DNA of 64,000 nt from Candidatus Margulisiibacteriota bacterium (lineage in GTDB: Bacteria > Margulisbacteria > Marinamargulisbacteria > JBFWNS01), in contig JBFWNS010000001.1 of the NCBI GenBank assembly GCA_050250935.1, positions 288,001 to 352,000 on the forward strand. The letters run 5' to 3'. Shown piece after piece: positions 23,033-50,239 of this stretch (the stretch's first letter is position 1; the number at the start of each line of letters is the position of its first letter). The notes under the pieces were generated by a model that saw only the letters and a list, made by a program, of their open reading frames with translations, did no database searches and had not been told where the DNA came from. A program made the position numbers and the translations under genes.

Positions 23033-24697
23033 CTAGATCAGGGATTTAACTTTTAGTTTGATTTCGGCCGGCACCAAATGCCGATGGGCTTTGACCATGG
23101 CCTTAAGCCCCCGAATGTAGGGCGACCGCATGCCTTTTGGCAAAACAGAAAAAGCGGAAATTAATCCCGACAAGGTCTGCCAATACATGGCATCGTGGCG
23201 GGCATGGGTCAGGGCTGTTTTGAAGGCGGTTTCGGCTTTGTCGTAGTGCTTTAGATGCACCAAACTAATGGCCAAAGAGGTTTGGGCAATGGGGCTGTGG
23301 GGGTTCACCAACAGGGCTTTTTTAAGCACCTCCACGGCTTTTCGGTGGTCTGGCTGTTGCTGAAACACCCATCCCAGCAGCAAATAGGCATCAAAGGCCA
23401 GGGGGCCATACACGGCAATCATTTGTTTACAAATTTCCAAAGACGCGGCCAGCAACCCATCTTGATACAGCAACGAGGCCAATCCCCTCAGTAAATAGTA
23501 GTCGAGTTGTTCTTCGTCGGTCAGGGTCACTAAAATTTCGCCGATTCCCGACACTGTTTCGGGGGTCCAGGATTTGCTGTCGATGTCGTCTAGGACAATC
23601 CCGATGCGTTTGGCCAGGTTTTCAGAAAACTGAGCCTTAAAAACAGCGACCAATTCGGGAACTGGGGTTTTGGATTTGTGGTACAGGGCATCTTGGGTTT
23701 GATCGCCTTCAAAGGCTGTGATCTGGCTGGAAAAGCCGAGTTTTTCGGCATGGTACTGCACATAAGGAAAAGCCACGGCATAAAACTGGGTAGCCCCATA
23801 TCCCGAAACCAGATAGGGCAAGGGTTGATCCAACATCGTGGTTGCAAAGCCAAAATCCGAACAAAAATAGGCGCCATTGGGCTTAAGCAGTTCATGAACC
23901 TTCGCCAAATGCTGGGGAATGTGATGGGACACATTAAAGCTCAGGGAAGAAGGCAGGTCGTTTTTGTCCAAATACCACATCCAAAACGCCCGAAGATCTT
24001 GCTGATCGGCCTGGGTCCAAGCATCGATGGATTGGGGCTCAAACGCTTCGTCCAAACAGCCCATAATGCGGTGGCTAAGCCCCTTGCGATTGTCAAACGG
24101 CTGGCGCAGCTGATGATACACATCTGTCTCATCCAAAAACACGGGTTTTCCCGCCACAAAACTGGGGAAAATGGCATCTGTTTTTAAGCAGGTTTTAACC
24201 CGTCCTTCAAAAAACGCTTTGTTTTCCCACACCACATGCCGGGCGGGAAAGGTGTCCAACAAATAGGTGCTAAACACAAAGTGAAAACTGCCGGCAACCT
24301 CCGGGGCGGTGGCATCGGTGGTTAAAAACACCAATTTCTCGTCTTTAAACCCCGATTGACTGTAAAAAGCCGTTAATTCGGGGCGAATGTCCGAGACAAA
24401 AAGCGTGGTTTTTTCATAAAGCGCTGGGGCCTGTTCTTTAAGGCTTTTCAGTACAAAATGGGACAACAATCCCAAGCCTGCCCCCAATTCCAAAAACCGA
24501 AAGTCTGTTTCTTTGGGAAACAACTTGGCCACTTCGATTATCAAAGCCACGATGCGTTTGGCTTGGGCCGGCCCGTTTCGGGTTGAAAACGGCACTTTCT
24601 CGTTAAAAAAAACCGAGGATCCCAAGGCCCAAATGTCTTCGGCCAATTGCATGCGAACCGATTTTGGGCGAGACACAAAGCCTTGTAGTTTAATCAT
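23033..24697 (-). CDS. SAM-dependent methyltransferase (MidA/NDUFAF7-like) with C-terminal TPRs
   Basis: LELGAGLGLL, YLLDTFP, SDFG, TPR-like helices at the C-terminus; paralog at 48677-50239. Confidence 0.65.
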   Translation of the reverse strand: MIKLQGFVSRPKSVRMQLAEDIWALGSSVFFNEKVPFSTRNGPAQAKRIVALIIEVAKLFPKETDFRFLELGAGLGLLSHFVLKSLKEQAPALYEKTTLFVSDIRPELTAFYSQSGFKDEKLVFLTTDATAPEVAGSFHFVFSTYLLDTFPARHVVWENKAFFEGRVKTCLKTDAIFPSFVAGKPVFLDETDVYHQLRQPFDNRKGLSHRIMGCLDEAFEPQSIDAWTQADQQDLRAFWMWYLDKNDLPSSLSFNVSHHIPQHLAKVHELLKPNGAYFCSDFGFATTMLDQPLPYLVSGYGATQFYAVAFPYVQYHAEKLGFSSQITAFEGDQTQDALYHKSKTPVPELVAVFKAQFSENLAKRIGIVLDDIDSKSWTPETVSGIGEILVTLTDEEQLDYYLLRGLASLLYQDGLLAASLEICKQMIAVYGPLAFDAYLLLGWVFQQQPDHRKAVEVLKKALLVNPHSPIAQTSLAISLVHLKHYDKAETAFKTALTHARHDAMYWQTLSGLISAFSVLPKGMRSPYIRGLKAMVKAHRHLVPAEIKLKVKSLI

Positions 24698-25601: not shown

Positions 25602-26885
25602 ATGGGTATCGGCATTACACCAGGTGGATTGGGCGCAAATAGTCAGGGATTAAATGTCCCCCGGGTTGCCCCTGTCGGAAAACCCCCAGAAACCGAAAAT
25701 GCCCAACGCTCGGCCATTAATGTCAGTTCAACCTCGTCTGCCCCGGCACCAGCCAGCACCCAAGCGGTTACGCAGACAGCACCGGCCACCGAAACCAAAC
25801 CCGCACAACCCACCAAACCCCAGTCCGAAGTTGTTCCCATGTCTCGGTCCGATTTGGTGGCCCATGCCATGCAACTTCAGGTTCAGACCAGTGCCACCAA
25901 TTTGCAAATTCTCGAAACCATGGTGCAACACAATTTGGCCCCTTCGAAAGAGAATTTCGACCAAGTGGCCCGGGTTTTAAAAGGGAATACCGGCATTACG
26001 GATATCGAAGCTGCGGTTGTCACCGTTGAAAAGGGATTGGGCAGCAACAACCGAAGTGCGGAATCGGTCTCTTCTTTTCTGACCAATATGGCCAAAATGA
26101 CCGAACAATTTCAAACCACACAAACCGCCCTTTCCCAACTCAAAAGCATCATTCAAAACAACCAACAACTGATCGGTTCTGGTTTGGTGGCCAGTATCTC
26201 GGCCTTGGCTGGCAGCATGGATGATGAAATTCAAAAATTGCTTAAAAAATCCTCGGATTCCGAAGATCAATTAAATTTACAAATTTTCGATCGTGGCAAA
26301 TGGGTTTCCGATCTGGAAGCCATGCGTGGGTTTATGGCCGGTCTTGAAAAAAATGTGGATAAAGCCGAATCCAACGCCGTGCCAGCCTCCCTCAAAGAAA
26401 GTCTTCAGTCGGTTCAAAAACAACTGACAGGTCTGACCAACACCTTGGTCTCGCAACTGGTTCTTTCCAAAGAAAGTCCCTTTGTAACCTTCGGTAAAGA
26501 CACCTATATGTACTGGCAAATTCCCAATCCTTTTGTGGCCAAACCCAGCAACATCGACATCCTGATCAAGCGTGACCCCAAAAAACGCAAGGGCGTGGAC
26601 CCCCAAAAAACCAAGCTGGCCATTAAGCTAGAAACCCCCGATTTGGGCGAAGTGGCCATCGTTGTCGAGCTGTCTGACCAGCGGGTGTGGTATATTTTTA
26701 ATACCGACAACGAAGAGACGCGCCAAGAAATCACCCGAATGAATGTGGATTTGAAAGAAAGAATGAAGTCGTTGAATTTGGATTTGGTTGGCTTTAAAAC
26801 CGCCTTCAAAAAATTGGATATCAAAAAAATGCTTATGCCCGTTGTGAATTTGGATTCGATTGTCCGCATCCAAGCCGAGGTCTAG
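25602..26885 (+). CDS. FliK-like hook/needle length-control protein
   Basis: Pro/Thr/Ala-rich N-terminus; C-terminal FliK-type domain LAIKLETPDLGEVAIVVEL...LKERMKSLNL; precedes a FlhB-C homolog. Confidence 0.65.
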   Translation: MGIGITPGGLGANSQGLNVPRVAPVGKPPETENAQRSAINVSSTSSAPAPASTQAVTQTAPATETKPAQPTKPQSEVVPMSRSDLVAHAMQLQVQTSATNLQILETMVQHNLAPSKENFDQVARVLKGNTGITDIEAAVVTVEKGLGSNNRSAESVSSFLTNMAKMTEQFQTTQTALSQLKSIIQNNQQLIGSGLVASISALAGSMDDEIQKLLKKSSDSEDQLNLQIFDRGKWVSDLEAMRGFMAGLEKNVDKAESNAVPASLKESLQSVQKQLTGLTNTLVSQLVLSKESPFVTFGKDTYMYWQIPNPFVAKPSNIDILIKRDPKKRKGVDPQKTKLAIKLETPDLGEVAIVVELSDQRVWYIFNTDNEETRQEITRMNVDLKERMKSLNLDLVGFKTAFKKLDIKKMLMPVVNLDSIVRIQAEV

Positions 26886-26887
26886 CC

Positions 26888-27241
26888 ATGGCCAAGATTA
26901 AACCCAAGAAAATTCGGCGTTTTTTAAGTGATCTGGAACTTCCAGAACGCAGTCAACTTAAGGCCATTGCCATCAAATACGATGTCCACAAGGATCATGC
27001 GCCTAAAATTACGGCCACAGGTCGCGGGGCCATTGCCGAAGAAATCTTAAAAGTTGCCGAAGAAAATGGGATTCCCTTCTACGAAGATCCCAGTCTGGCA
27101 GCCCTTTTGGCCAAACTTGAACTGGACGTCAACATTCCCGCCGAACTTTATACCCTGGTGGCCGAGGTCTTGGCCTTTGTGTATCAGTTGGATAAATTGG
27201 CCAAAAAACGCAACGCCATTCGCAAAAAATTCGTGCGATGA
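26888..27241 (+). CDS. Stand-alone FlhB C-terminal-like switch protein (EscU/YscU/YlqH family)
   Basis: AIAIKYD..APKITATGRGAIAEEILKVAEENGIP..IPAELYTLVAEVLAFVY. Confidence 0.92.
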   Translation: MAKIKPKKIRRFLSDLELPERSQLKAIAIKYDVHKDHAPKITATGRGAIAEEILKVAEENGIPFYEDPSLAALLAKLELDVNIPAELYTLVAEVLAFVYQLDKLAKKRNAIRKKFVR

Positions 27242-28044
27242 GGATCGTCTTGATCCTGGCCATGATAGGCTTTTTGCTGACCTGGGGGTCCATTTCCTTT
27301 GCCCAGGAAATCAATCAACCGCCAAACCCCACTTTTGCCATCGACCCTGCCCTTAAATACACCATGCAAGGCATGCGTGGCATTCGGACAGCCTATGCCA
27401 TGAACGTTCTGTATACCACCAACACCGACGTTCCGGGTTATATCGAAACCTATACTTACGTTAGCCGCATCAAAAACAACCTTCAAATCGAGCCCTACTA
27501 CAAATGGGGTAGGGTCAGCCGTCTTCAAGAAACGAATCGGCCTTTGGACATCTATATCGATGCCGATGCCCGTGGTTTTCTTCAAATTCAATTGCCTTTT
27601 GCCATTGGTTATACCCGGGATGGGCGCATGACGCTTGGTGAAAACAACCAATTGGTCACCCTTGCGGGTCATTACCCCATTTTGGGGGAAGAGGGCTTCA
27701 TTTTCTTGCCGCCCGGCGATATTGCCATTTCAAAATCTGGGGTTATTTTTGTGAATGGAAACCGAATTGCCAAGCTCAAAATCGCGGTAATGCCCAAATC
27801 CAGCCTGGGACGGATGATCGGTATTAATGGGGTGGTTTTTATTGCCAACGGCCCCGACGATTTGGCCTTGCTTAAAGACGAAACCCTCTATGGCATTCGC
27901 CAAGGCTTTTACGAAGATTCTACCGTTATGAAAGAAGCGGCTGGGGAGAGCATGTTTAATCAACAATCCTGGATGGCCATGCTCAAAGCCGTTAAAACCC
28001 TTAACAAAACCATGCGAAGCAGTGCTCATTTGGGCAGTGAATAA
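27238..28044 (+). CDS. FlgF/FlgG-family rod protein paralog 1, with N-terminal signal peptide
   Basis: MRIVLILAMIGFLLTWGSISFA|QE; NTDVPGY, ETNRPLD, YTRDG, G.PILG, QGFYEDSTV. Confidence 0.8.
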   Translation: MRIVLILAMIGFLLTWGSISFAQEINQPPNPTFAIDPALKYTMQGMRGIRTAYAMNVLYTTNTDVPGYIETYTYVSRIKNNLQIEPYYKWGRVSRLQETNRPLDIYIDADARGFLQIQLPFAIGYTRDGRMTLGENNQLVTLAGHYPILGEEGFIFLPPGDIAISKSGVIFVNGNRIAKLKIAVMPKSSLGRMIGINGVVFIANGPDDLALLKDETLYGIRQGFYEDSTVMKEAAGESMFNQQSWMAMLKAVKTLNKTMRSSAHLGSE

Positions 28045-28049
28045 GGACC

Positions 28050-28078
28050 TTGCCAAAAAATTGACTTCCCTCTATCAT
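28050..28078 (+). promoter_or_regulatory. Putative sigma70 promoter inside the flagellar-like cluster
   Basis: TTGCCA-17 bp-TATCAT in the gap between the two FlgF-like genes. Confidence 0.5.
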
Positions 28079-28112
28079 TTTTTCACTTTGGACTTTATTC
28101 CTCTTGTCTAGG

Positions 28113-28913
28113 ATGTTTATGGGTATACGATCTTGGCTTGGGGGATTCTTTTTACTGCTGCTGGCCACCAGCGTTTATCCCCAATACGACAACAAAAATT
28201 TGCCTGTCATGGACTTTGCGTTGCGGCAGAACCTGCAAAACATGAGGGCCCAACAAACCCAGTACACCACCTTCGTGTTTTATACCATTAATATGGACAC
28301 CCCAGGCTATATCGAGCATGCGTTCTACAACGCCAGGGAAAATGGCATTATCCGTGGAAAAGCCTTCCCACGGTGGCGGGAAAGTGGGGTTAAAGAAACC
28401 AATCGACAACTCGACTTTCTGATCGACGCCGAAAGCCGGGGCTTTTTTACCATTCTTCTGCCCTATGGCATTTTGGGCTACACCCGAGATGGCCGTTTCA
28501 AATTGGGTGAAAATGGGCATTTGATTACCTTTGCAGGGGGATACCCTGTTTTGGGAGAAGAAGGAGAAATCTATTTGCCTATTGGCGACATTGCTGTTTC
28601 AAAATCTGGGGTCCTTTCGGTAAACAGCGACCGGGTTGCCAAGCTTCGTATCGCCGTCATGCCCTCTAAAACCTTGGACCGTATGGTCGAAATCAATGGT
28701 TCTGTGTTTTATTTGTCTGGCAAAGAACCTGTAGAATTGCTTGAAGGAGAGCAATATTATGCAGTTCGACAAGGGTTCCTTGAAGAATCCAACGTGTTAA
28801 AAGCGCTGAATGGTGATATTTTAATCGTTAAGCAGTCCTACGAGGCTTCGACCCGTGCTGTGAAAAGTTTGACCAAGACCATGACCTCGTCGTTCCAAAT
28901 TGGAACCCCCTAG
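28113..28913 (+). CDS. FlgF/FlgG-family rod protein paralog 2, with N-terminal signal peptide
   Basis: MFMGIRSWLGGFFLLLLATSVYP|QY; NMDTPGY, ETNRQLD, YTRDGRF, QGFLEESNV. Confidence 0.82.
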   Translation: MFMGIRSWLGGFFLLLLATSVYPQYDNKNLPVMDFALRQNLQNMRAQQTQYTTFVFYTINMDTPGYIEHAFYNARENGIIRGKAFPRWRESGVKETNRQLDFLIDAESRGFFTILLPYGILGYTRDGRFKLGENGHLITFAGGYPVLGEEGEIYLPIGDIAVSKSGVLSVNSDRVAKLRIAVMPSKTLDRMVEINGSVFYLSGKEPVELLEGEQYYAVRQGFLEESNVLKALNGDILIVKQSYEASTRAVKSLTKTMTSSFQIGTP

Positions 28914-28940: not shown

Positions 28941-29744
28941 ATGATCCATCAGTTATTTATCGCCAAGTCCGGGATGTTCGCGTTTCAACGAAAAATGCAG
29001 GTCATTACCGACAACATTGCCAATGCACAAACACCAGGGTTTAAAGGCAGCCGAACCGAAATGGAGAGTTTGTTCCCCTATATCATGGAACAAACCATTA
29101 CCGAGTTCGAAGACTCGTCGATTCCTGTGGGCGAAAAACGTAAAAAATACATGCAATACGGCCAAGGGGTTCGGGTTAACGATGTGTCCCGGGATCTTCG
29201 CCAAGGTGTTATTGAAATTACCAACCAACCCCTGGACATGGCCATCGAAGGGGTGGGCTTTTTCCAAGTTCGGATGCCCGACGGGACTTTGGCTTACACC
29301 CGTGCTGGCAACTTTAAATCAGACAATCAGGGAACCATTGTGGATCCAAACGGTCACCCACTGGAGCCCTCAGTTCGACTGCCCAACAACATGACGGACA
29401 TTGCCATCACCGACGATGGAAAAATCATGGTCTATGTGAACAACGAAGCCGTCCCTCGCGAGGCCGGACAACTGCTCTTGGCGAAATTCCAAAACCCAGC
29501 CGGCATGAAGTCTGTCGGACAAAACCTCTATGTCGAATCCCCTGCCTCCGGGGAACCCGTTTTTGAAAACCCTGGCCGGAACGACATGGGCCGCATCCGA
29601 GAACGGGCCCTGGAATTCTCCAATGTGGATATTATCGATCAGCTGACCTCGATGATTTTGACCCAGCGTTCTTTCGAGTTGATTATTAAATCGACCAGCG
29701 CGGGTGATGCGATGCTTAAAGCTGCTAGTGATATCGGCAAATAA
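28941..29744 (+). CDS. flgG: Flagellar distal rod protein FlgG (no signal peptide)
   Basis: AKSGMFAFQRKMQVITDNIANAQTPGFK, TNQPLDMAIEG.GFF, YTRAGNF, LEFSNV; RBS AAGGAG. Confidence 0.93.
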   Translation: MIHQLFIAKSGMFAFQRKMQVITDNIANAQTPGFKGSRTEMESLFPYIMEQTITEFEDSSIPVGEKRKKYMQYGQGVRVNDVSRDLRQGVIEITNQPLDMAIEGVGFFQVRMPDGTLAYTRAGNFKSDNQGTIVDPNGHPLEPSVRLPNNMTDIAITDDGKIMVYVNNEAVPREAGQLLLAKFQNPAGMKSVGQNLYVESPASGEPVFENPGRNDMGRIRERALEFSNVDIIDQLTSMILTQRSFELIIKSTSAGDAMLKAASDIGK

Positions 29745-30450
29745 AGCCTGGTTATTCTTTCTGCTATGCTGGGCCAGTTGCACACCGCTTTTTGGGGTTG
29801 CTGTGCCCGATTTTCGCAGCGCGTTGGATCAGCAGTTGTTGGGACATGTTTTGGCGTCGGATTCTCGGCTTACCAGCGAGTCTGTTCGCATTCGGTATAC
29901 GCTTAGCCCCCTTCAAACCCAGCGCATTCAATCGGCGAAAACGGTAACCCTGACCCTCCCCCCAGAAGCCTCTTTGATTGGCAAAACCACCCAAACCCTT
30001 AGCCTAACTCTTGAAACCGAAACCGTGCCGCTTCCCTTGTCGATCGAAATCGACGCTTATGCCCATTTTCTGAAAGCAGCCAGAACCATTCCAGCCAGAA
30101 CCCTCATCGCCACGTCCGATGTTTATGTCGACTTTGAATCGGTTTACGGAAAACCCAAACAGACCTTCGAAAACCCAGCTCAAATTGTGGGTAAACAAAC
30201 CATTACAGTAATCCCAAAATATGCTATAGTGGCGTCGTGGTTTTTACAGGAAAAACCCCTTTTCCTTTCAGGAAAAACCATAACCGTCATCGTCAAAGGA
30301 AAACAAATTTCCATTTCACTACCTGGGATTGCCCTCAACGATGGTTTCAAAAACAAGTCCGTCAAAATCAGAACAAAAGCATACCCTGACAAACTCTTGG
30401 AAGGTGAAGTATTGGATGAAGATCATGTTCAAGTCCTTATTCGCGATTAG
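29728..30450 (+). CDS. flgA: P-ring formation chaperone FlgA
   Basis: Signal peptide, SAF-like AARTIPARTLI..SDV, G.AL.DG; sits between flgG and flgH. Start uncertain. Confidence 0.78.
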   Translation: MISANKAWLFFLLCWASCTPLFGVAVPDFRSALDQQLLGHVLASDSRLTSESVRIRYTLSPLQTQRIQSAKTVTLTLPPEASLIGKTTQTLSLTLETETVPLPLSIEIDAYAHFLKAARTIPARTLIATSDVYVDFESVYGKPKQTFENPAQIVGKQTITVIPKYAIVASWFLQEKPLFLSGKTITVIVKGKQISISLPGIALNDGFKNKSVKIRTKAYPDKLLEGEVLDEDHVQVLIRD

Positions 30451-31030
30451 TTTGGTCTTTTTTTCAGCCTCCTTCTGCCAGGCTGATTCTCTTTGGACCA
30501 CCGGCTCTACGTCGATGTTTGTGACACCCAAAAACAGCACCAAGGTTGGGGACATCATCACAATTCGCATTTCGGAAAGCACCACGGCTCTGCAAGAAGC
30601 CACCACCAAAACTCAGAAACAGTCCGAGCTGGATGCCCAATTGCTCTCTAACTGGGATCAGGTCGCCAACATTTTGGGCAGTGAATCGATTCGAAAGGGC
30701 TATGAGCTCGACATCAAAGGCAACGACTCCTACAACGGTACCGGCCAAACCTCGAGACGAAGCCGGGTGTCCGCCACCATTACAGCCATTGTGACCGAGG
30801 TTTTGGATACTGGGATTTTTTATATCGTTGGTGAACATAAGGTTAAGGTGAATGACGAAGTCGAAACCATCCGTATTTCTGGTTTTGTTCGACCCGAAGA
30901 TGTTAAGCCAGACAACAGCATTGCGTCTTCTCAAATTGCAAAAGCAGAAGTCTCCGTTATTGGGGCAGGGGTTGTTGGGTCGAAACAAACACCCGGTATT
31001 TTAACCAAAATGTTCAACTGGTTCTTTTAA
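30416..31030 (+). CDS. flgH: L-ring protein FlgH
   Basis: DSLW, VGDIITIRISE, ITAIVTEVL, RISGFVRPEDV..DNSI.S.QIA.A, GILTKMFNWFF. Confidence 0.92.
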   Translation: MKIMFKSLFAISLVFFSASFCQADSLWTTGSTSMFVTPKNSTKVGDIITIRISESTTALQEATTKTQKQSELDAQLLSNWDQVANILGSESIRKGYELDIKGNDSYNGTGQTSRRSRVSATITAIVTEVLDTGIFYIVGEHKVKVNDEVETIRISGFVRPEDVKPDNSIASSQIAKAEVSVIGAGVVGSKQTPGILTKMFNWFF

Positions 31031-31031
31031 C

Positions 31032-32129
31032 ATGAAAAAAACAATCGTTCTTTTTTTAATTATTGCGTTGTTAGCCCCTTCTTTTTCGCTTTTTGCCCAG
31101 GACGGAGGCCCAACGGTTCGCCTGAAAGACATCAGTCGAATTCTGGAGGCCAGAGACAATCAATTGATGGGGTTTGGATTGGTTATTGGTCTTCGGAATT
31201 CTGGAGACTCCAAAAACACGGTCTTTACCGATGCAGCTTTAACCAACATGCTCAAAAAAATTGGCTTGCCCACGGGGCCCAAAGAATTTTCTTCGCGCAA
31301 CGTCGCTGCGGTTATGGTCACTGCGACCTTGCCCCCTTTCATCAAAAAAGGACAAAAATTGTCGGTTACGGTTTCGTCTTTGGGGGATAGCACCAGCTTG
31401 GTGGGTGGCACCCTTATTATTACCCCACTCCAAGGGGTCAATGGCAAAATTTATGCGGTTGCCCAAGGAACGGTTTTGGTGGGCGGCTTGGATGGCAGCT
31501 CTCAACAAGGGCGTTTATATCGCAACGAAACCACGGTGGGACGTATCCCAGAAGGGGCCATTGTTGAAGATGTGGTGCCCGTTACCTTTACTGACCAACA
31601 CAACATTACCATTGTAATGCACAACTCGAACTTTATTACGGTTTCCCGGGCCACAAAAGCCATTCAGGATAATGGGTTTCCCGGCGCCAAGGCCATCGAC
31701 GCCAACATGATCAAAGTCCCCTTGTCCGATCTTAATTCTTCCGATTTGGTCAGTACCATTGCCAAACTTGAAAATATTGCAGTTGTTCCCGATTCTTCCT
31801 CCAAAATTGTGGTTAATTCCCGAACTGGAACCGTGGTTATTGGCGATATGGTTCGGCTTTTCCCAGTGGCTGTGACCCATGGCAACATCTCCATTCGCAT
31901 CAGCGACAGCGACAATGGGGGGTTGGCTGCCCTTCAAGGTGGGGGCGCTCAAGAACCCATTCGGGTTGATGAGCCTCAACCTAAAATTATTTTCTTGAAC
32001 CCCAATTCAACCTTGTCTAGCTTGGTGAATGCCCTTAACGAAATTGGGGCTTCACCCAAAGACCTTATCTCGATTTTGCAAGCACTCAAAGAATCTGGTT
32101 CCCTTATCGGAGACCTTGAGGTCCTCTGA
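31032..32129 (+). CDS. flgI: P-ring protein FlgI
   Basis: RLKDI, NQLMGFGLVIGL.NSGD, NVAAVMVTATLPPF, RTGTVV, DLISILQALKESG. Confidence 0.96.
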   Translation: MKKTIVLFLIIALLAPSFSLFAQDGGPTVRLKDISRILEARDNQLMGFGLVIGLRNSGDSKNTVFTDAALTNMLKKIGLPTGPKEFSSRNVAAVMVTATLPPFIKKGQKLSVTVSSLGDSTSLVGGTLIITPLQGVNGKIYAVAQGTVLVGGLDGSSQQGRLYRNETTVGRIPEGAIVEDVVPVTFTDQHNITIVMHNSNFITVSRATKAIQDNGFPGAKAIDANMIKVPLSDLNSSDLVSTIAKLENIAVVPDSSSKIVVNSRTGTVVIGDMVRLFPVAVTHGNISIRISDSDNGGLAALQGGGAQEPIRVDEPQPKIIFLNPNSTLSSLVNALNEIGASPKDLISILQALKESGSLIGDLEVL

Positions 32130-32527
32130 TGCAGCAGTGGATTTTCTGGGCCTTTCTTTTGTCTTTACTTCCCTCGGTTCTTATCGCACAAGATTTCTCT
32201 AGCATGATGCCCATGGATCCCATGGCGATTCAACACCAGAAGTTGAGCCGAAAAGAAAAAAAAGACATCCTGGTTACCTTCGAAGCCCAGATTATCAAAG
32301 AAATGTTTTTAAAACAGTGTATGATCCAAAATATCAGCTTCTTGGACGAAGAAGAAAAGGCCGAAGATGCCGCATTGTTGCAGCAATTCGATATGCAAAA
32401 CGACTACTTCACCGATGCCATGGCCTTAAAACTGGCCAAGCAGGATATTTTTAAGCTCAAAGCCTACTTTAAACGCCGAGGAATCAACCCTGAACAAGCA
32501 CAAAAACAATCAACAGCAAGAAATTAA
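32129..32527 (+). CDS. FlgJ-like rod-binding protein (no muramidase domain) with signal peptide
   Basis: Follows flgI. MQQWIFWAFLLSLLPSVLIA|QD; FEAQIIKEM and DAMALKLA resemble the FlgJ N-terminal rod-binding motifs. Confidence 0.55.
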   Translation: MQQWIFWAFLLSLLPSVLIAQDFSSMMPMDPMAIQHQKLSRKEKKDILVTFEAQIIKEMFLKQCMIQNISFLDEEEKAEDAALLQQFDMQNDYFTDAMALKLAKQDIFKLKAYFKRRGINPEQAQKQSTARN

Positions 32528-32588: not shown

Positions 32589-33266
32589 GTGGCAGAGCAC
32601 ATGTCCATAGTCGAGGCCATTGCCTCCAACATTGCTGGCAGTGGGCGAATTCCCCCTTGCATTGGATTTGACGACTTGGTCAGCTGGGGCATCGAAGGGC
32701 TGATCAAGGCCCACCGCAACTACAAGTCGGACAAAGGGTCTCAGTTCAAAACCTATGCGTTTTACCGCATTCGGGGCGAGATTTTGGACCGAATTCGAAG
32801 CGAATGGCAATACCGAAACCCCCACGAGTACACCGATTACCGCAAAAAACTTCAGGATCGTATTGCCGAAATTGCCGAAGAAGCCTTGGAAGATCCTGCT
32901 CTGGCCGAAAATTCGGCAGCAGCCTACGAGGAAGCGGTTCAAAGCATTGTGGCCAACTCGGCCATTTCTTGCCTGATTTCTTCCGATTCCATCGATATCG
33001 AATCCCATATGGCCGGCACCCGAAACCCTGAAACCGAGTTTTTCGAGGAAGAAGAAGCCTCTTACCGGTTGTTATGGAGCGAAATTAATACCCTAGATGC
33101 CGAAGAAAAAGAATTGGTGGAATTGTTTTATGTTAAAGGGCTCAAACAAAAAGAAATTGCAGCCAAGCTTAATTTTTCCAACAGCAAGGTGTGCCGTTTG
33201 CACATGAAGATTTTGGACAAACTGCGTCGCCGCATGTCCAAAAAAATGACGGAGCCCCAAGCATGA
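32589..33266 (+). CDS. FliA/WhiG (sigma-28)-like sigma factor
   Basis: DDLVSWGIEGLIKA..FKTYAFYRIRGEILD.IR (region 2); GLKQKEIAAKLNFSNSKVCRLH (region 4). Frame is open upstream, so the start may be earlier. Confidence 0.88.
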   Translation: MAEHMSIVEAIASNIAGSGRIPPCIGFDDLVSWGIEGLIKAHRNYKSDKGSQFKTYAFYRIRGEILDRIRSEWQYRNPHEYTDYRKKLQDRIAEIAEEALEDPALAENSAAAYEEAVQSIVANSAISCLISSDSIDIESHMAGTRNPETEFFEEEEASYRLLWSEINTLDAEEKELVELFYVKGLKQKEIAAKLNFSNSKVCRLHMKILDKLRRRMSKKMTEPQA

Positions 33267-33640
33267 AAGTCGTTTTGATGGGCTTATTAATGGCCTTGTT
33301 ATGTCTCGAACCCCTTCAAGCCAAAGCCATCGACCGTGTTTTGTTTGACGATGTTCACGACCATTTGGCAACGGCCATTAATGGCGCAGCCGAAAAACAA
33401 AGCATGTTTTCGTACAACATCGCCAACGCTTCGACCCCTGGGTTTCGACCCGTTTTGAGCCCCGAAGACAGTCTCGAATTTCGAAACCTTGTTCCCGCCA
33501 ATCACCAAGATTCGGACATTATGATTGAATATTTTATGGCCAAATTAACCGAAAACAGGTCTCATCAAAGTGCCTACATTAAACTGTTTACAACAAAAAT
33601 GGGTATTTTGCGCCAGGTTGCGACCTTGGGTAAACGCTAA
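33263..33640 (+). CDS. flgB: Proximal rod protein FlgB with N-terminal signal peptide
   Basis: ATGA overlap with the sigma stop; MKVVLMGLLMALLCLEPLQA|KA; NIANASTPGF; precedes flgC. Confidence 0.85.
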   Translation: MKVVLMGLLMALLCLEPLQAKAIDRVLFDDVHDHLATAINGAAEKQSMFSYNIANASTPGFRPVLSPEDSLEFRNLVPANHQDSDIMIEYFMAKLTENRSHQSAYIKLFTTKMGILRQVATLGKR

Positions 33641-34083
33641 TGAAAAAGGCCGTCGTTCTTTTTTTACTGCTGACACTTGCTTCTCCACTTCTAGCCCAGG
33701 GCTTGGATGATGCGTTTAAAATCAGCATGTCTGGCATTGCGGTTCAAAAATTTCGCCTGCGCCTGATTGCGGAAAATATCGCCAACGTCGCGACGTTGAA
33801 AACCGAAACCGGCCTGCCCTATCAGAAACAGTATGCTGTTTTGCAGCAGCATAAATTTGGGGTTCGGGTTTTGCGGGTTGAAAAAAGCAACGAACCCTTC
33901 CCCATGTACCCCGACGGCGCGGTGATTCAAGCCGACGACGGAGGTTTTGTCCATTGGCCCAACGTTAACCTTCCCGACGAGTACGTGGATTTGGCCTTTA
34001 CAGAAGCCATGTTCGAAGCCAACGTTACGGCTTATAAATCGGCCAAGGCTATGTATCAACAAACCTTGGAAATCTTGAAATAA
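33640..34083 (+). CDS. flgC: Proximal rod protein FlgC with N-terminal signal peptide
   Basis: MKKAVVLFLLLTLASPLLA|QG then LDDAFKISMSG..Q..RL.LIAENIAN, PY, ADDGGFVHWPNVN, FEANV..K.MYQQTLEILK. Confidence 0.9.
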   Translation: MKKAVVLFLLLTLASPLLAQGLDDAFKISMSGIAVQKFRLRLIAENIANVATLKTETGLPYQKQYAVLQQHKFGVRVLRVEKSNEPFPMYPDGAVIQADDGGFVHWPNVNLPDEYVDLAFTEAMFEANVTAYKSAKAMYQQTLEILK

Positions 34084-34096
34084 AGGAGGCTCTTTT

Positions 34097-34738
34097 ATGA
34101 TTGGAAACGTTTCAACAGCTGCAGCATCCGCTTCTTCTGGCCCAGCCATACCAAAACCCTCGCTGGCCGATCTGGATGGCCCTTCTTTTCAAGAAGTTTT
34201 GGACGAAAAAACAGCCAAACAACCCGACCATTCCAACACACAAAATCCGATTCAACACCTGACAAAAGCCGTAGCCGGACCTTCTGCAATTGCCCAATCC
34301 AATTTGGTTGCCCAGGCATTATCCGACGAAATTACCAAGCCTCAACGCAAGTTTCAGGCCGCCAAAAAAGACATCAACGACAACACCCTTTTGGCCCAAG
34401 CCCCAGACAACAACTACGAAAACTGGCAGGCTCAACTTTTTGACAACGCCCCAGCTGCCGTTACCCCTAAAAACGTCGTTAATGAAGCCCAAAAAAGTAA
34501 TAAATTGGATGTGACGCCCTTCCAATTGTTCATGGACAAAGCGGTTGATGCCCTCGAAAATATCAGCCAGATGGAATTTAAGGTAAACGACTTGATCGAC
34601 GGCTATATTCAGGGTAAGGTTTCTATTGATGAAGTGACCATCGCCGCTTCAAAATTAAGCCTCGCTGTTTCCTTTATTACAACTGCCGTCACCACGGCCA
34701 CCCAAACCTTAAAAGAACTTCAACAAATGCAAATTTAA
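34097..34738 (+). CDS. fliE: FliE-like protein with long N-terminal extension
   Basis: C-terminus FQLFMDKAVDAL..GKVSIDEVTIAASKLSLA..KELQQMQI is typical of FliE; lies between flgC and fliF; RBS AAAGGAGG. Confidence 0.8.
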   Translation: MIGNVSTAAASASSGPAIPKPSLADLDGPSFQEVLDEKTAKQPDHSNTQNPIQHLTKAVAGPSAIAQSNLVAQALSDEITKPQRKFQAAKKDINDNTLLAQAPDNNYENWQAQLFDNAPAAVTPKNVVNEAQKSNKLDVTPFQLFMDKAVDALENISQMEFKVNDLIDGYIQGKVSIDEVTIAASKLSLAVSFITTAVTTATQTLKELQQMQI

Positions 34739-34762: not shown

Positions 34763-36385
34763 ATGGCCGAAATGGACTTTGACAACGAAAACGATCTTGA
34801 TATTGGCGAACCCCCAAAACCTGCTTCTGGGTTCTCGTTTCGTCGTATTTTTACAACCTTGGCCGTTGTCGCAGGTGTGGTTGCTTTGGGGGCCACGGTT
34901 TACAATTATGTGATTAAAGACGACAGCATTAGCGCCATCAAAGCCAAGGCCCCAGCCACTGCTGAAGCCCCTGAAAAAAAGGAAAAATCTGGTGGTTTTT
35001 TCAGCTCTTCAGATAAAAAGAAAAAAGTAAAATATACCGTTTTATACACACAGTTGTCTCCCGACATCACCACCAGTGCTTTGCGGGAACTCAGCTTTTC
35101 AGACATTCCTTTCGAAACCAAACAAAACGGGAAAAACTTCGATTTGTTAATCGATGAAGACCGCATTGACGAAGCCAAAAACCTGCTGGCCCTCAAGGGA
35201 ATTCCGGGTGGTGAAATTAAAGGCTATCAATTGTTGGACGATTCCCAAACCCTTGGGGTAACGGAATTCGACAAACGGGTTCGGTTTGTAAGGGCCCTTT
35301 CTGGGGAATTGGAAAAAGCCATTACCAAGCTCGATATGGTTGAAGATGCCAAGGTTCAAATTGTATTGCCCGAACAGCGTTTGTTTGCCGTTACCCAACC
35401 CCCCGTCACGGCCTCGGTTTTGATTCGCAAAACCCAGGATGGGGTTCTAACCGACGATGTGGTGTTTAGCATCATTCAAATGGTGGCCAACTCTGTGGAA
35501 AACCTTCAACAAGAAAACATTACGGTTGTGGACACCGAAGGACACGTGTTGTCCGAGGGTATCTTCGAACGCATGGCAGCCAGACGAGCTGGACGCATTG
35601 TACCCAAGCGCCCAACAGCAGCTGTCGAAGAAGCCGTTTCCCCCACCGAAAATGTGGCTCCATCGGCCAATACAGGCCCAACTTTTGCCTCGATTTCCGA
35701 TCTGAATAAATGGTATGCACTTAAAGAACAGTACGAAAAAGACCTGGCCAAGCGGGCCATGCGCCAGTTGGTGGGCATTTTACCGATGGGCAGCTACAAA
35801 GTGGTGATTGCTGCTGATATTTCGCCTGTTATTAAAGACGGCCAAATCGAAGTCCGCCGTCTGACCACCAGCATTGTCGTAGACAGTAGCCGAAACGACA
35901 TTTATTTGGATATTTTAACCAAAAAACAAATCTTCAATACCATTGCAGGTGCCATTGGCTATGTGAAGGGCCGGGACACGATTCAGCTGAACAAGGCCGA
36001 CTTTAGCCTTCTTTCGGCTGCGGAACGCCAACAGATTATGGACGTTTTCATCGACAAAAATTGGAAATATTATTTAAAACTCTATGGCAAATACTGGCCG
36101 TTTGTGGCCGTTCCTGTTGGGGTGTTTGTGGTATACAGCCTTCTGGCAAGCTTGGTGCGCCGGATTCGAGAACGCTTTAAACGCAATGCCGAGGAACTCG
36201 AGGATGATGACGATAACGAAGACCCCGAAGAAGGGGAACCTGACTTTGCCGAACTTCATCAAGAAGTGAATCCTGCCAGGTACACCGAACAAATTAAAAC
36301 CACAGCTGAAAGCAACCCCCAAGTCATCGCCCAATTAATGGAAGAATGGCTTGAAAACGACCAAGAAGAAGAGGTGCCTGCCTAA
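34763..36385 (+). CDS. fliF: MS-ring protein FliF, with shortened RBM3/beta-collar
   Basis: TM1, YTVLYTQL, GYQLLD..LGVTEF..RALSGELEK.I, AKVQIVLPE..F, TASV, second TM helix, NPQVIAQLMEEWL. Confidence 0.9.
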   Translation: MAEMDFDNENDLDIGEPPKPASGFSFRRIFTTLAVVAGVVALGATVYNYVIKDDSISAIKAKAPATAEAPEKKEKSGGFFSSSDKKKKVKYTVLYTQLSPDITTSALRELSFSDIPFETKQNGKNFDLLIDEDRIDEAKNLLALKGIPGGEIKGYQLLDDSQTLGVTEFDKRVRFVRALSGELEKAITKLDMVEDAKVQIVLPEQRLFAVTQPPVTASVLIRKTQDGVLTDDVVFSIIQMVANSVENLQQENITVVDTEGHVLSEGIFERMAARRAGRIVPKRPTAAVEEAVSPTENVAPSANTGPTFASISDLNKWYALKEQYEKDLAKRAMRQLVGILPMGSYKVVIAADISPVIKDGQIEVRRLTTSIVVDSSRNDIYLDILTKKQIFNTIAGAIGYVKGRDTIQLNKADFSLLSAAERQQIMDVFIDKNWKYYLKLYGKYWPFVAVPVGVFVVYSLLASLVRRIRERFKRNAEELEDDDDNEDPEEGEPDFAELHQEVNPARYTEQIKTTAESNPQVIAQLMEEWLENDQEEEVPA

Positions 36386-37032
36386 TGTTGACTGGAAAAC
36401 AAAAAGCCCAAATTCTGTTGTCCCTTTTGGGTTCAAAAGCCCAAGACGTTCTAAGCTTATTGTCCCCCGAAAAAGCCCAACTGTTGACCACCATTATTGA
36501 GGACGCCCCAGAACCCAGTGCCAAAGAATTAAGCGCTTTGTCCGACGAAATTACCCAACGGGTTGGTGGAAACAAAAAGCCCATGCTTACGGGCGACTTG
36601 TCCAGCTCGTCATCTTCTCTTTTTTCTGGAGAAAGTTCGTTTGGGGCCTTTGATGCCGCACCCGAAGCCGAAGAACCAGAATCCCCTGTGGAATCCGGTC
36701 CCAAATTGCGCCCACTACCCGAAGTGGCTGCCCTGCTTTCCAAAGAAAAACCCCAGTTGATTGCCTTTATTTTGGGCAAAGTTGAAGAGCCCATCAAAGA
36801 GGAATTGCTCTCGTATTTACCCGACTATGTGTTGGCCGAAGTGCAAGCTCGCTCTGTGGATTCTTTCCCGCTTTCAGATGCGGTGTTTAAACAATTGTAC
36901 GACGCTATTTTTTATGCCCCAGAGATCCCCGAAGGCGAAGAGGCGCCAGCCGCAGAATCCAGTTCTACGGACTCGCCTTTTGCGTCCTCCTCGTCTTCGT
37001 CTATGTTTGATAGCGCACCGCTATTTAGCTAG
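36385..37032 (+). CDS. Truncated FliG-like protein (N and M domains only)
   Basis: LTGKQKAQILLSLLG (FliG-N) and LLSKEKPQLIAFIL (EHPQ-type M motif); only 215 aa, ending in a Ser-rich tail. Confidence 0.78.
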   Translation: MLTGKQKAQILLSLLGSKAQDVLSLLSPEKAQLLTTIIEDAPEPSAKELSALSDEITQRVGGNKKPMLTGDLSSSSSSLFSGESSFGAFDAAPEAEEPESPVESGPKLRPLPEVAALLSKEKPQLIAFILGKVEEPIKEELLSYLPDYVLAEVQARSVDSFPLSDAVFKQLYDAIFYAPEIPEGEEAPAAESSSTDSPFASSSSSSMFDSAPLFS

Positions 37033-46969: not shown

Positions 46970-48680
46970 ACACCGCTTCTTTTTTATGCTTGGTTTTGTT
47001 CTTTGGGTCATGGTCATCGACCCTGTGGCTGTCCTGGCCCAAACCGATTTTAATCACCCCGTATTTGCCATTCGACTGCCTGGGCTTACCGCTGTTTCAG
47101 AAAATGCCCTTATCCCCTCTTTAAGCACCAAAGTAGGCCGAAAAACCAATGCCTTTAACCTAAAACGGGATATTGAAACCTTGTTTTTAACAGGATTATT
47201 TCGCCAAGTTGAAGCCAACCCTGTGGTGTCTAACAATGTTCTGACCCTCGATTTTGTGGTGAATGAAAACCCTACCGTATCGGCCATTGTGTTTGAGGGA
47301 AACACGGTTTTTTCAAGTGAGACTTTACGGCCGCTGATCCAAAACCGTCCCGGCATGGTTTTGAATATTCGCTCGATTGAAACCGATAAGACGGCTCTGG
47401 AAACCTGGTACCGTGACCACGGCTACGACCTGTTTGTTGTGGTAGATATCAGTTTGGATGCCGATCGGGTGTTGCATTATCATCTGCAAGAAGGCCGTAT
47501 TGGAAAAATTTTGTTTGTGGGCATCGATCAAGTCCGGGCCTTTGTGTTGGATCGGGAATTGGTCACCCAACCCGATACTGTATTTAATTCCAAAACCTTG
47601 CGGGAAGACCGAGACCGCTTGCTGCGTTTGGGCTATTTTTCGGATGTTTCCCCGCCCATTTTGCAAGAAAGTTTGGATAAAACCAAACCCAATATTGTGT
47701 TTAAAGTCCAAGAAAAAAAGCTCAATTTGATGGATTTTGGGATAGAACAAGAGCGGGACATCGTGGTTGCCTTTGCAAAATTGGACCTTCAACAACGCCT
47801 GATTCCCAGCGATTTTACCCGGCTTAAAGTTCAGTCCGACTATCAATATGGCCGTGTCGGCATTCGAAGCTATTCCTTAAGTTATCTGCAACCTTGGTTT
47901 TTGAATTGGATCCCCGTTAGCTTTGCCACCGATGCTTGGAACGAACTTAAACAAGAATATTTGGTTGATAAATCCACCAATACACGAAGCTTGAAGGACA
48001 ACAAACGCACGGGCTACGACGTGATCTTGGGTGTACCCCTGATTCGAGACCGCATGACCCTGAGCTCCAAGTTCAAAAGTGAGTCTGTTTCTATTATTCA
48101 AAGCGATGGCTCCTATGCCCCCTACTACGATATTCGAACCTTGGGCTTGGCCTTAAGCTATCGTCAATTGGACGACAAAAACAACCCTAAATCGGGACTT
48201 GCTTGGAGCCTCGAAGGCGAAAAAGGCGGCTACATTGCTGGGCTCAATTTGGGGGGACTCACCTTTACCCGGACCAGTGCCGAAACCATTTTGTTTTTGA
48301 AACAGTCCGATGTGGATACCTTGGGATTTCATTTGGCCGGGGGCATGATTTTTGGAGCTTCCTCGATCAGCACTTTCGAAACCGATAGTTTCGAGCTGGG
48401 GGGTGCCGCATCGTTACGGGGCTATAAAGAAACCAATCCCTTTACAGGTAGCCGAAAGATTTTGGCCAATATCGAATACCGCCACGATTTTAACCCCGTT
48501 ATTCAAGGGGTTCTGTTTTATGATGTGGGGCAGGCCTTTTCGACAGGGGCTGTTCCGTATCCCCTACACCAAGGCTATGGGTTTGGCACCCGGTTTTTTA
48601 CCCCCATTGGCGCCTTAAGATTCGATCTGGCTTGGGGTGAGGCCTTTATGATCCATTTTGGATTGGGCCAAGTTTTCTAG
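46959..48680 (+). CDS. Omp85-family (TamA/BamA-like) outer-membrane protein
   Basis: Signal peptide, POTRA-like repeats, LGGAASLRGY, GYGFGTRFFTPIGALRFDLA, terminal GLGQVF. Confidence 0.9.
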   Translation: MNFKHRFFFMLGFVLWVMVIDPVAVLAQTDFNHPVFAIRLPGLTAVSENALIPSLSTKVGRKTNAFNLKRDIETLFLTGLFRQVEANPVVSNNVLTLDFVVNENPTVSAIVFEGNTVFSSETLRPLIQNRPGMVLNIRSIETDKTALETWYRDHGYDLFVVVDISLDADRVLHYHLQEGRIGKILFVGIDQVRAFVLDRELVTQPDTVFNSKTLREDRDRLLRLGYFSDVSPPILQESLDKTKPNIVFKVQEKKLNLMDFGIEQERDIVVAFAKLDLQQRLIPSDFTRLKVQSDYQYGRVGIRSYSLSYLQPWFLNWIPVSFATDAWNELKQEYLVDKSTNTRSLKDNKRTGYDVILGVPLIRDRMTLSSKFKSESVSIIQSDGSYAPYYDIRTLGLALSYRQLDDKNNPKSGLAWSLEGEKGGYIAGLNLGGLTFTRTSAETILFLKQSDVDTLGFHLAGGMIFGASSISTFETDSFELGGAASLRGYKETNPFTGSRKILANIEYRHDFNPVIQGVLFYDVGQAFSTGAVPYPLHQGYGFGTRFFTPIGALRFDLAWGEAFMIHFGLGQVF

Positions 48681-50239
48681 GTTTGTGCTGAAACCGTTTC
48701 GATAATCGACAAACAGGTGTTGATGTCTTCTGGAGCGCTGTAGATGAGGGCTTTTCTAAACAGGCTTAAGGCCTCGGGCTTGGACCGGTTTAAAACCACC
48801 ATGCCCAAAGACAAATACCCCACCGAAAGTGTTGGACACACCATGATAACCGTTTGAAAACACTGACTGGCCATCGACAGTTCATTTTGTTTTTGATACA
48901 CCCAGCCGGCTATCAAAAAGCCCCAGACTGCACATTCTTTATAGACATCCAGCAATTGTTCGGCCACCGCCAAAGCTTGGTCTAAATACCCAGCCTGAAA
49001 CAAGGTTACCCCCAAATTTTTCAGAAAAAAGTGATCTTGCCGATCGTGTTGAGACAAGGGTTCGCAAAGCTGATCGATCTTATCCAAATACCCAGGGTCT
49101 TCGGGGGACAAGGCATTTAATTCGTCCAGGGCATCGCCAATGCGATCCGAAATGGGGTCGGTGGAAAGCTCGAACAGTGGCGATACAGCCTCGATACTGG
49201 CCTGGTCTTTGGCCATGAGCCACTCTTGGGTGGTTCCCGGTTTTCGAAGGGTGTGCCAACACTGTCCCCCCCATTCCAAAACCCTATCCGTTGCCAACTG
49301 AAATTGAACCCCGTGGAATTGGGCCATGCCATAGGTAGTCATTAACTGTTTAACAGGACAGGGAGCGACAGACACCCAACCAAAATCGCTGACACAATAC
49401 ACCCCTTTGGGATGTAACCCTGCCCAAACCGACGCCAAATGGGTGTCCAATTCTGGAATCACATTCACGGTGCATCCCTCCCACTCGGGATGGCTGGCCA
49501 AACTGTTTTTTAGGCTATCGCGTTGCTGTTGGGTCCAGTGGCTGGCCGTTTCGACCGGCACTTCGGTATAGGTTTCTTGAATAACGGCTGCCAACTGTGG
49601 GGCCAGCAGTTGGGTTTTGGGGTTGGAAAAATCGGCCAAAAGGGCCACCAGCTCGTCCATGGGAATGGGCTTGGGTTCTGGGCGACTGACATCGACCACC
49701 ACGGGCTCGGCTATCCATTCGGTTTGGACCACGATTTCAAAGAAACGTCCTTGGCGAACCACAACATGTCGGGTGGGCAGGGCATCCCACAAATAGCTGC
49801 TTAAACAAAACAAAGCCGGCTCTGGAAGCTGCCAGTCGGGATCCATCACATTGGCGATTTCAAAGCGCAGTTTTTCCCGGTGATCTGCAAACTGCGGGGA
49901 CTGGGCCCATTGATCCACCATGGCCTGAGACCCTTCCACCAAATGCCAAACCAGTTTGGCATAGACACCGGGGTAATCCTTGGCCAGAGCATCCAAGGCA
50001 AAACGACTGAGCAACCCCATTCCCGCACCCAAATCGTAGACATGGTACTGGGCATCTTCGACTTGGGCGGCCACCGCTGCAATGGCCTTGGCTATTTTTT
50101 CGGCAAAAGCCGGCCCATTACGGCCAGCAAAGGGGATTTTCTGGGTAAAAAAAGCATCGGTCCCTTTTTTCCACGTCAACTGGGCCAAGTGGGCACGCAC
50201 ACTCTCGGGCCGGGGAACGAACGATTGAACCAGGGACAT
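48677..50239 (-). CDS. SAM-dependent methyltransferase (MidA/NDUFAF7-like) with C-terminal TPRs, paralog 2
   Basis: YDLGAGMGLL, YLWDALP, SDFG; shares the N-terminal FV.RP.SVR..LA..W and PF..RNGP motifs with 23033-24697. Confidence 0.65.
   Translation of the reverse strand: MSLVQSFVPRPESVRAHLAQLTWKKGTDAFFTQKIPFAGRNGPAFAEKIAKAIAAVAAQVEDAQYHVYDLGAGMGLLSRFALDALAKDYPGVYAKLVWHLVEGSQAMVDQWAQSPQFADHREKLRFEIANVMDPDWQLPEPALFCLSSYLWDALPTRHVVVRQGRFFEIVVQTEWIAEPVVVDVSRPEPKPIPMDELVALLADFSNPKTQLLAPQLAAVIQETYTEVPVETASHWTQQQRDSLKNSLASHPEWEGCTVNVIPELDTHLASVWAGLHPKGVYCVSDFGWVSVAPCPVKQLMTTYGMAQFHGVQFQLATDRVLEWGGQCWHTLRKPGTTQEWLMAKDQASIEAVSPLFELSTDPISDRIGDALDELNALSPEDPGYLDKIDQLCEPLSQHDRQDHFFLKNLGVTLFQAGYLDQALAVAEQLLDVYKECAVWGFLIAGWVYQKQNELSMASQCFQTVIMVCPTLSVGYLSLGMVVLNRSKPEALSLFRKALIYSAPEDINTCLSIIETVSAQT

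Follow-up and report, generated by a model that had tools for sequence, protein, structure and literature searches.

Predicted Sec signal peptides on proximal rod proteins of a flagellum-related gene cluster in Margulisbacteria

Introduction

The axial parts of the bacterial flagellum are held to pass unfolded through a type III channel, adding at the tip in a fixed order, and the P and L rings assemble around the rod from the periplasm. The present work concerns a flagellar gene cluster of a Candidatus Margulisiibacteriota bacterium (assembly GCA_050250935.1, contig JBFWNS010000001.1, positions 288,001 to 352,000 of the forward strand; this whole stretch of 64,000 nucleotides is referred to as the window), in which two proximal rod proteins, FlgB and FlgC, begin with what look like Sec signal peptides. 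In Salmonella, the proximal rod is formed by FliE-FlgB-FlgC-FlgF-FlgG (7BIN, 7CGO, 8WKK). The window's system uses the same families in the same gene order, and FliE, FlgG, and the export set FliPQR/FlhAB/FliHI are shared by both, but here FlgB, FlgC, and FlgF carry signal-like extensions, the equivalent of FlgB F45 is lost in the window's clade, and the FlgB collar-binding insertion and the FliF beta-collar are absent. Flagellin, FlgK, and FlgD have no match in the window genome (95.85% complete).

The injectisome, whose inner rod protein SctI is a type III substrate, constitutes another point of comparison: it is flagellum-derived and non-rotating, with an inner ring devoid of a beta-collar (SctJ is among the fold matches of the window's FliF model), but the window's system retains FlgB, FlgC, FlgF, FlgG, and the P and L rings. 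Lysobacter enzymogenes OH11 reportedly keeps flagellar export genes though it has no flagellum, whereas in the present case genes for the rod, the P and L rings, and a FliK-like protein are conserved phylum-wide; the opening of the abstract on that species (PMC7688988) makes no mention of signal peptides. A likeness in export route is offered by FlgH, FlgI, and FlgA (and by the cleavable signal of FliP), whose signal anatomy is similar to that of the rod proteins described here. These are, nevertheless, rings or chaperones outside the axial lattice, whereas in the window's system axial subunits appear to take the Sec route. The preliminary description of this DNA, made from the sequence alone, held that only FlgA, FlgH, and FlgI use Sec; those three do, but FliP also has a cleavable signal peptide, according to PMC12403130. 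[quoted passage not shown]

A literature search covering titles and the beginnings of abstracts, with few subscription papers and no supplements, returned no report of Sec signals on rod proteins. In PMC6349859, as far as its text was accessible, no passage with 'motil' or 'secretion' was found, and its listing holds no 'flagell'.

Results

N-termini of FlgB and FlgC

FlgB begins with MKVVLMGLLMALLCLEPLQA-K and FlgC with MKKAVVLFLLLTLASPLLA-Q, the hyphen marking the predicted cut, just as the preliminary description had read them. The overlaps on which it based the two starts are also present, namely an ATGA (33263-33266) at the stop of the sigma-factor gene and a TAATG (33638-33642) that couples flgB to flgC. 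Both proteins are recognizable as rod proteins: they have the family domain, are homologous over their full length, and lie in a flgB-flgC-fliE-fliF operon. Their Pfam matches are weak (Flg_bb_rod on FlgB 34-62, Flg_bbr_C on FlgC 103-144); a FlgC-family profile built from 24 sequences matches solved FlgC chains end to end, with E-values from 6e-34 to 1e-22, its position 21 aligning with residue 2 of chain 12du_W. Gln20 of the window's FlgC replaces the initiator Met of canonical FlgC, so the preceding 19 residues are a pure add-on. The claim that a normal FlgC N-terminus follows directly after the cut holds in that the predicted cut restores a canonical start, although this start is Gln20-Gly21, two residues ahead of LDDAF. 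For FlgB, the proposed cut between LQA and K is favoured by the register with orthologues, but the site is ambiguous, the scoring script having chosen AKA-I. Across orthologues, the distance from the cut to a downstream anchor is 28-29 residues in 35/63 signal-bearing FlgC, and the distance from Met to the same anchor is 26 or 29 in 45 of the 51 signal-less FlgC scored.

The upstream starts lie at most 15 nucleotides from the upstream stop in 38/47 FlgB and 55/66 FlgC, and are preceded by a ribosome-binding site in 26/49 and 35/67, respectively. No conserved start with a ribosome-binding site exists further downstream, such a site being found before an internal start codon in only 1/49 FlgB and 3/67 FlgC. 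A wrong-start artefact is ruled out by the stop-start coupling and by the orthologues; an upstream GTG at 33191 falls within the sigma gene.

Type of signal

Signals were scored with a heuristic of our own, not with SignalP, and starts were picked by codon, ribosome-binding site, and coupling. Known Sec substrates serve as positive controls (FlgH passes in 147/162 rows, FlgI in 148/168), and FlgG (0/154) and FliE (0/118) as negative ones. The extensions of FlgB and FlgC resemble the FlgI, FlgA, and FlgH signals of the same loci in length, charge, and hydrophobicity: their median length is 20-21 residues (21 for FlgI), lysine or arginine occurs among the first eight residues in 48/49 FlgB and 64/67 FlgC, and the median hydrophobicity over 19 residues is 1.91 for FlgB and 1.87 for FlgC, compared with 2.09 for FlgI and 2.92 for the FliF transmembrane helix. 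When 30 class sequences of each protein are compared, identity is 25-26% within the extensions but 35% for mature FlgB and 51% for mature FlgC; what is conserved is the character of the extension, not its sequence. Lipoprotein and twin-arginine (Tat) signals are ruled out, since a lipobox is found in 1/49 FlgB and 0/67 FlgC, and a Tat motif in 0/49 and 0/67. Genes for SecA and signal peptidase I are present in the window genome.

Both FlgF copies of the window and the FlgJ-position protein also carry signal-like extensions, which FlgG and FliE do not. From these features, it is very probable that FlgB, FlgC, both FlgF copies, and the FlgJ-position protein are exported by Sec and cleaved by signal peptidase I. 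As FliE and FlgG are devoid of the extension, only part of the rod would have been rerouted.

Distribution across the phylum

A FlgC match is found in 131 of the 146 phylum genomes. Loci were taken around most of the matches listed (the listing left out 31), and five rows were dropped before counting, four of them named loci duplicating counted genomes and one a second FlgC fragment. Groups are designated by family numbers and correspond to clades on the tree. Group A is the window's class, and W, which we take to be Saganbacteria (WOR-1), is a sister group in which the gene order is the same.

FlgC passes the heuristic in 45/49 loci of A, 1/1 of B1, 7/7 of T, 2/2 of E35, 11/12 of C, and 1/1 of D, compared with 0/47 in W, 0/8 in the canonical second flagellar loci of C and D genomes, and 0/26 outside the phylum. 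On inspection, all five misses in A and C have a hydrophobic leader. The corresponding values for FlgB are 40/47 (A), 1/1 (B1), 7/7 (T), 1/2 (E35), 0/11 (C), and 0/1 (D), with 0/46 in W, 0/8 in the canonical second loci, and 0/25 outside the phylum; among the class misses, two (G028 and G054) have a hydrophobic leader on inspection and five are truly signal-less. Orthologues of the class therefore keep the extensions, a point on which the preliminary description had made its claim depend. FlgF passes in 33/48 class rows and 0/40 in W, about nine of the 15 class misses being FlgG duplicates labelled into the FlgF row. The start of the FlgJ-position gene product is hydrophobic in 30/36 loci of A and 3/6 of T, but in none of C (0/11) or W (0/46). 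In a FastTree phylogeny of five proteins, W is sister to all lineages with a signal on FlgC (support 0.999); since L065, the nearest outgroup, has no signal either, a single gain of the FlgC signal suffices.

The FlgB gate motif

According to PMC9307174, F45 of Salmonella FlgB is critical for secretion and F49 of FlgC is not; FlgC F49 was, therefore, set aside as a second test of type III signal loss. Of the 115 FlgB of the system, 65/66 signal-less proteins and 15/49 signal-bearing ones have an intact F45-type motif, as do 33/33 canonical FlgB. Degraded motifs number 34 among the 49 signal-bearing FlgB and one among the 66 signal-less. The protein behind this one case, from G028, has an upstream hydrophobic stretch and looks like a mis-called start. 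Within the signal-bearing clade, FlgB is without its signal at four separate points of the tree, the motif being retained at each; the motif in turn is missing at up to four points, each of which has a signal or a likely one. This dependence is a pattern read by eye.

The FliF collar and access from the periplasm

According to 10.1101/2020.12.05.413195, FlgB residues 58-82 pack on the FliF beta-collar in the basal body as solved, and collar loops sit between FlgB, FlgC, and FlgF. The collar insert comprises 4-43 residues in 99/99 FliF of the system, versus 73-109 in 10/10 canonical FliF, and the structure model of the window's FliF has a short hairpin in its place, with a predicted local distance difference test score (pLDDT) of 88.5; the fold matches of this model include FliF and SctJ chains. 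The collar-binding insertion of FlgB is absent too, the tail measuring 65-93 residues (group medians 65-72, n = 115) versus 100-113 in canonical FlgB (n = 33). Such a collar-less MS ring likely leaves the proximal rod open to the periplasm. Collar loss as a consequence of the signals is ruled out, the signal-less group W being collar-less as well.

The FliG of the operon is devoid of the torque domain; MotAB and a FliF-FliG fusion are encoded elsewhere in the window genome. The fusion protein (C6:12967-14445; L223:7968-9446), of 492 amino acids, combines a signal peptide, a FliF RBM3 domain with a collar-like hairpin, a membrane helix, and the FliG M and C domains. It has matches in 62/146 phylum genomes, is not found in most W and T genomes, adjoins the rod cluster in G042, and is separated from it by a few kb in G039 and G040. 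A search of PDB sequences with its domain gave no significant match. FliG_C is present in only 64/146 genomes, compared with 131/146 for the FlgC match.

Signal-bearing rod proteins beyond the phylum

A profile search was made against 1.84 billion representative sequences. Among the 150 listed of its 6859 matches, 23 pass the heuristic, five of which lie outside the main clade. Two of the matches, P0039 and P0051, fall within the Margulisbacteria system, and the signal-bearing FlgC of P0042 and P0046 nest among signal-less canonical FlgC (0.88), which may represent a third signal gain. P0166 and P0178 lead to an alphaproteobacterial set in which, for the 120 listed of 542 homologues, 25/29 proteins of at least 148 amino acids pass, versus 1/91 shorter ones. 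A first scan of metagenomes found nothing; two metagenome loci out of 80, L261 and L262, have flgB and flgC both with extensions, followed by a fliE without one. The cluster of the L261 FlgC includes 'FlgC [Rickettsiales bacterium]' (MDA0781711.1). With ordinary alphaproteobacterial FlgC these proteins share about 55% identity, so the signal gain in this Rickettsiales-like lineage is likely independent; the tree, of 135 columns, is weak, and transfer is the less likely alternative. In L261, five small lipoprotein-like genes stand in a row after fliE-fliQ.

The rest of the machine

Elsewhere, the window genome encodes FliM, FliN, FliO, FliP, FliQ, and FliR, FlhA and FlhB, FliH and FliI, and MotA and MotB. 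The export gate and ATPase set (FliPQR, FlhAB, FliHI) is present, which rules out gate loss as the cause of the signals. FlgL, FliD, and CheR were not found in this genome by blastp with E. coli queries. A flagellin domain occurs in 15/146 phylum genomes, 13 of these belonging to groups C and D, and a second, canonical flagellar locus was seen in all eight C and D genomes examined. On balance, the machine would be a non-rotating, filament-less device for export or contact, and not a swimming organelle.

The coordinates of the window features are gathered in Table 1. The FlgJ label denotes position only, because the 132-amino-acid protein has no Pfam match. At 213 amino acids, FliE is about twice as long as in other groups, and its N-terminal part is a long stretch of low complexity. 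The signal-bearing FlgF is tandemly duplicated (27238-28913), and other class genomes duplicate FlgG instead. The lipobox of FlgH is lost (3/95 in this system), which makes lipid anchoring of the L ring unlikely. Outside the window's class, L047, L051, and other loci have a gene of 112-134 amino acids between flgA and flgH, presumably resembling the aspartate decarboxylase PanD.

Several further genes accompany the machine. A 287-amino-acid FlgE/G-like protein without a signal peptide (C5:143274-144137, minus strand) is possibly a short hook, and FlhB (C5:124509-125582) has NPIH at the autocleavage site, where NPTH is the usual sequence. Between fliP and fliQ, a secreted protein of 328 amino acids (C5:122438-123424; L003:14439-15425) is syntenic in 6/6 loci and was found, by a single-protein query, in 38/146 genomes, none of them in W. 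This protein was considered as a dedicated rod chaperone and not retained: the support is its distribution, its fold look-alikes are widespread and unnamed, and a homologue search gave one relative. Long coiled-coil and proline-rich open reading frames (ORFs) just upstream of the export genes (C5:109480-116430) and five ORFs downstream (C5:133078-139374), none with a Pfam match above the cut-off, are possible substrates. The window cluster itself is flanked by related ORFs of 554 and 520 amino acids (23033-24697 and 48677-50239), methyltransferase-like by eye, with similar N-termini (FVSRPKSVR and FVPRPESVR).

Table 1. Features of the window cluster and of related loci. Gene order: fliK-like, flhB-C, flgF1, flgF2, flgG, flgA, flgH, flgI, flgJ-position gene, sigma, flgB, flgC, fliE, fliF, fliG(N,M).
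Feature	Position	Strand	Remarks
FliK-like protein	25602..26885	+	first gene of the cluster
FlhB C-terminal domain protein	26888..27241	+	stand-alone
flgF-like, copy 1	27238..28044	+	signal-peptide-like extension; predicted cut after Ala22
flgF-like, copy 2	28113..28913	+	signal-peptide-like extension; start ATG 28113, alternative TTG 28104
flgG	28941..29744	+	canonical N-terminus, no signal peptide
flgA	29704..30450	+	P-ring chaperone; usual signal peptide
flgH	30416..31030	+	L ring; signal peptide without lipobox
flgI	31032..32129	+	P ring; usual signal peptide
flgJ-position gene	32129..32527	+	132 amino acids; signal-peptide-like extension
FliA-like sigma factor	32589..33266	+	stop overlaps the flgB start
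flgB	33263..33640	+	125 amino acids; signal-peptide-like extension; no collar-binding insertion (about 37 amino acids in canonical FlgB)
FlgB predicted Sec/signal peptidase I signal peptide	33263..33322	+	residues 1-20; other possible cut after residue 22
FlgB Ser66	33458..33460	+	position of the type III gate-recognition Phe (Salmonella F45), kept by signal-less orthologues
flgC	33640..34083	+	147 amino acids; signal-peptide-like extension
FlgC predicted Sec/signal peptidase I signal peptide	33640..33696	+	residues 1-19; Gln20 at the position of canonical FlgC Met1
fliE	34097..34738	+	long N-terminal extension, no signal peptide
fliF	34763..36385	+	MS ring; a 13-residue turn (about 35795-35884) replaces the RBM3 beta-collar
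fliG	36385..37032	+	N and M domains only, no torque domain
Rickettsiales-like flgB-flgC	L261:9552-10465; L262:9594-10468		both with extensions

Discussion

Proposed assembly of the proximal rod

Sec-directed, cleaved extensions on FlgB, FlgC, FlgF, and the FlgJ-position protein would make it likely that the proximal rod is built from the periplasmic side, and the gene content probably reflects a hybrid rod, in which FliE and FlgG travel by type III export and FlgB, FlgC, FlgF, and the FlgJ-position protein by Sec. In such a scheme, FliE would be exported by the type III route and open the FliPQR gate, after which mature FlgB, FlgC, and FlgF would diffuse in the periplasm and join the exposed tip left open by the collar-less MS ring. 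Subunits added while the tip is still exposed to the periplasm (FlgB, FlgC, FlgF, and the cap) would come by Sec, and FlgG and later subunits would pass through the channel, being inside the P and L rings and beyond the periplasm's reach.

Several observations weigh against this reading. The heuristic passes 302 of the 1640 ORFs of the window genome (18%), so that two neighbours would pass by chance about 3% of the time, and it falsely passes the N-terminal helices of FliG in 39/73 cases; the recurrence of the extensions in 45/49 FlgC and 40/47 FlgB of the class, set beside 0/154 FlgG and 0/118 FliE, is nevertheless more than chance. Residue -1 is Ala in 51/63 FlgC and 29/40 FlgB, counts to which the cut-site scoring itself contributes in part. 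The rule for the gate motif was fixed after the sequences had been seen, Phe or Tyr lies nearby in 13 of the 34 FlgB called degraded, and the Fisher value of 3e-16 overstates the association, because most of these 34 cases, including that of the window genome, form a single clade. The losses of the collar and of the FlgB insertion are also found in the signal-less group W and, therefore, precede the signals, for which they can be at most enabling; the 492-amino-acid fusion could, moreover, supply a collar in trans. The N-terminal helix motif of FlgF is eroded, which could mean a changed role. Finally, 15 signal-bearing FlgB retain the gate motif, and in-frame ATG, GTG, or TTG codons occur near the canonical start in 33/49 FlgB and 26/67 FlgC.

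Alternative explanations

The eroded helix motif of FlgF and its duplication in the window genome, the shortened FlgB, and the duplication of FlgG in about nine class genomes, which could give a rod fed by type III export only, would all suit Sec-exported proteins that no longer line the channel and instead surround a core of FliE and FlgG as an outer brace or adaptor, or do another periplasmic job. This is unlikely: FlgC aligns over its full length with the rod FlgC of solved structures, FlgB retains the NIAN motif and the C-terminal helix, and gene order and translational coupling are those of the signal-less group.

Early flagellar subunits are described in PMC8983047 as using a hydrophobic N-terminal signal that is spaced from the gate motif. 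The extensions could, accordingly, be an enlarged version of such a type III signal, or serve a dual route, with the rod still built through the channel, and the intact export gate and ATPase as well as the gate motif kept by 15 signal-bearing FlgB would fit. The full n-h-c anatomy, with a cut restoring the canonical FlgC start, speaks for a Sec signal instead, FlgG and FliE never have the extension despite facing the same gate, and the gate motif decays on the signal-bearing background, all of which makes this explanation quite improbable.

Still less credence is given to an internal start yielding a signal-less form that would build the rod by type III export, the long form being a side product. 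The in-frame codons mentioned above, among them a TTG at Leu22 of the window's FlgC, would permit it, but their position is not conserved, ribosome-binding sites favour the upstream start by the counts given earlier, and the decay of the gate motif is left unexplained. Uncleaved membrane anchors tethering the rod to the inner membrane are the least probable of all: the hydrophobic cores of the window proteins do reach 2.8-3.3 over nine residues, but the 19-residue hydrophobicity is that of FlgI signals and well under that of the FliF membrane helix, small residues occupy -1 and -3, and FlgC and FlgF are far from the membrane in the rod order FliE-FlgB-FlgC-FlgF-FlgG, as given in 10.1101/2020.12.05.413195.

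Implications

A broader proposal, about as likely as not, is that the rerouting of axial subunits from type III export to Sec happened more than once. One such event would lie at the base of most Margulisbacteria and another in a Rickettsiales-like lineage, with P0042/P0046 as a possible third. In Margulisbacteria, the outcome would be a phylum-wide, collar-less, and filament-less machine with a shaft built from two directions, in which FlgB always has at least one of the two export signals, and the inside-out rule of rod assembly would be a habit of lineages, not a physical necessity.

If periplasmic assembly is true, a textbook rule of flagellar assembly is broken, and natural rod proteins with cleavable Sec signals would mean that subunits can reach the proximal rod from the periplasm. 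Such proteins would allow the part that early type III signals play in export to be told apart from the part they play in assembly, and bear on how flagella and injectisomes split their parts between two export routes. They also point to a machine, so far undescribed, that extends across an entire phylum, the sister group of Cyanobacteria.

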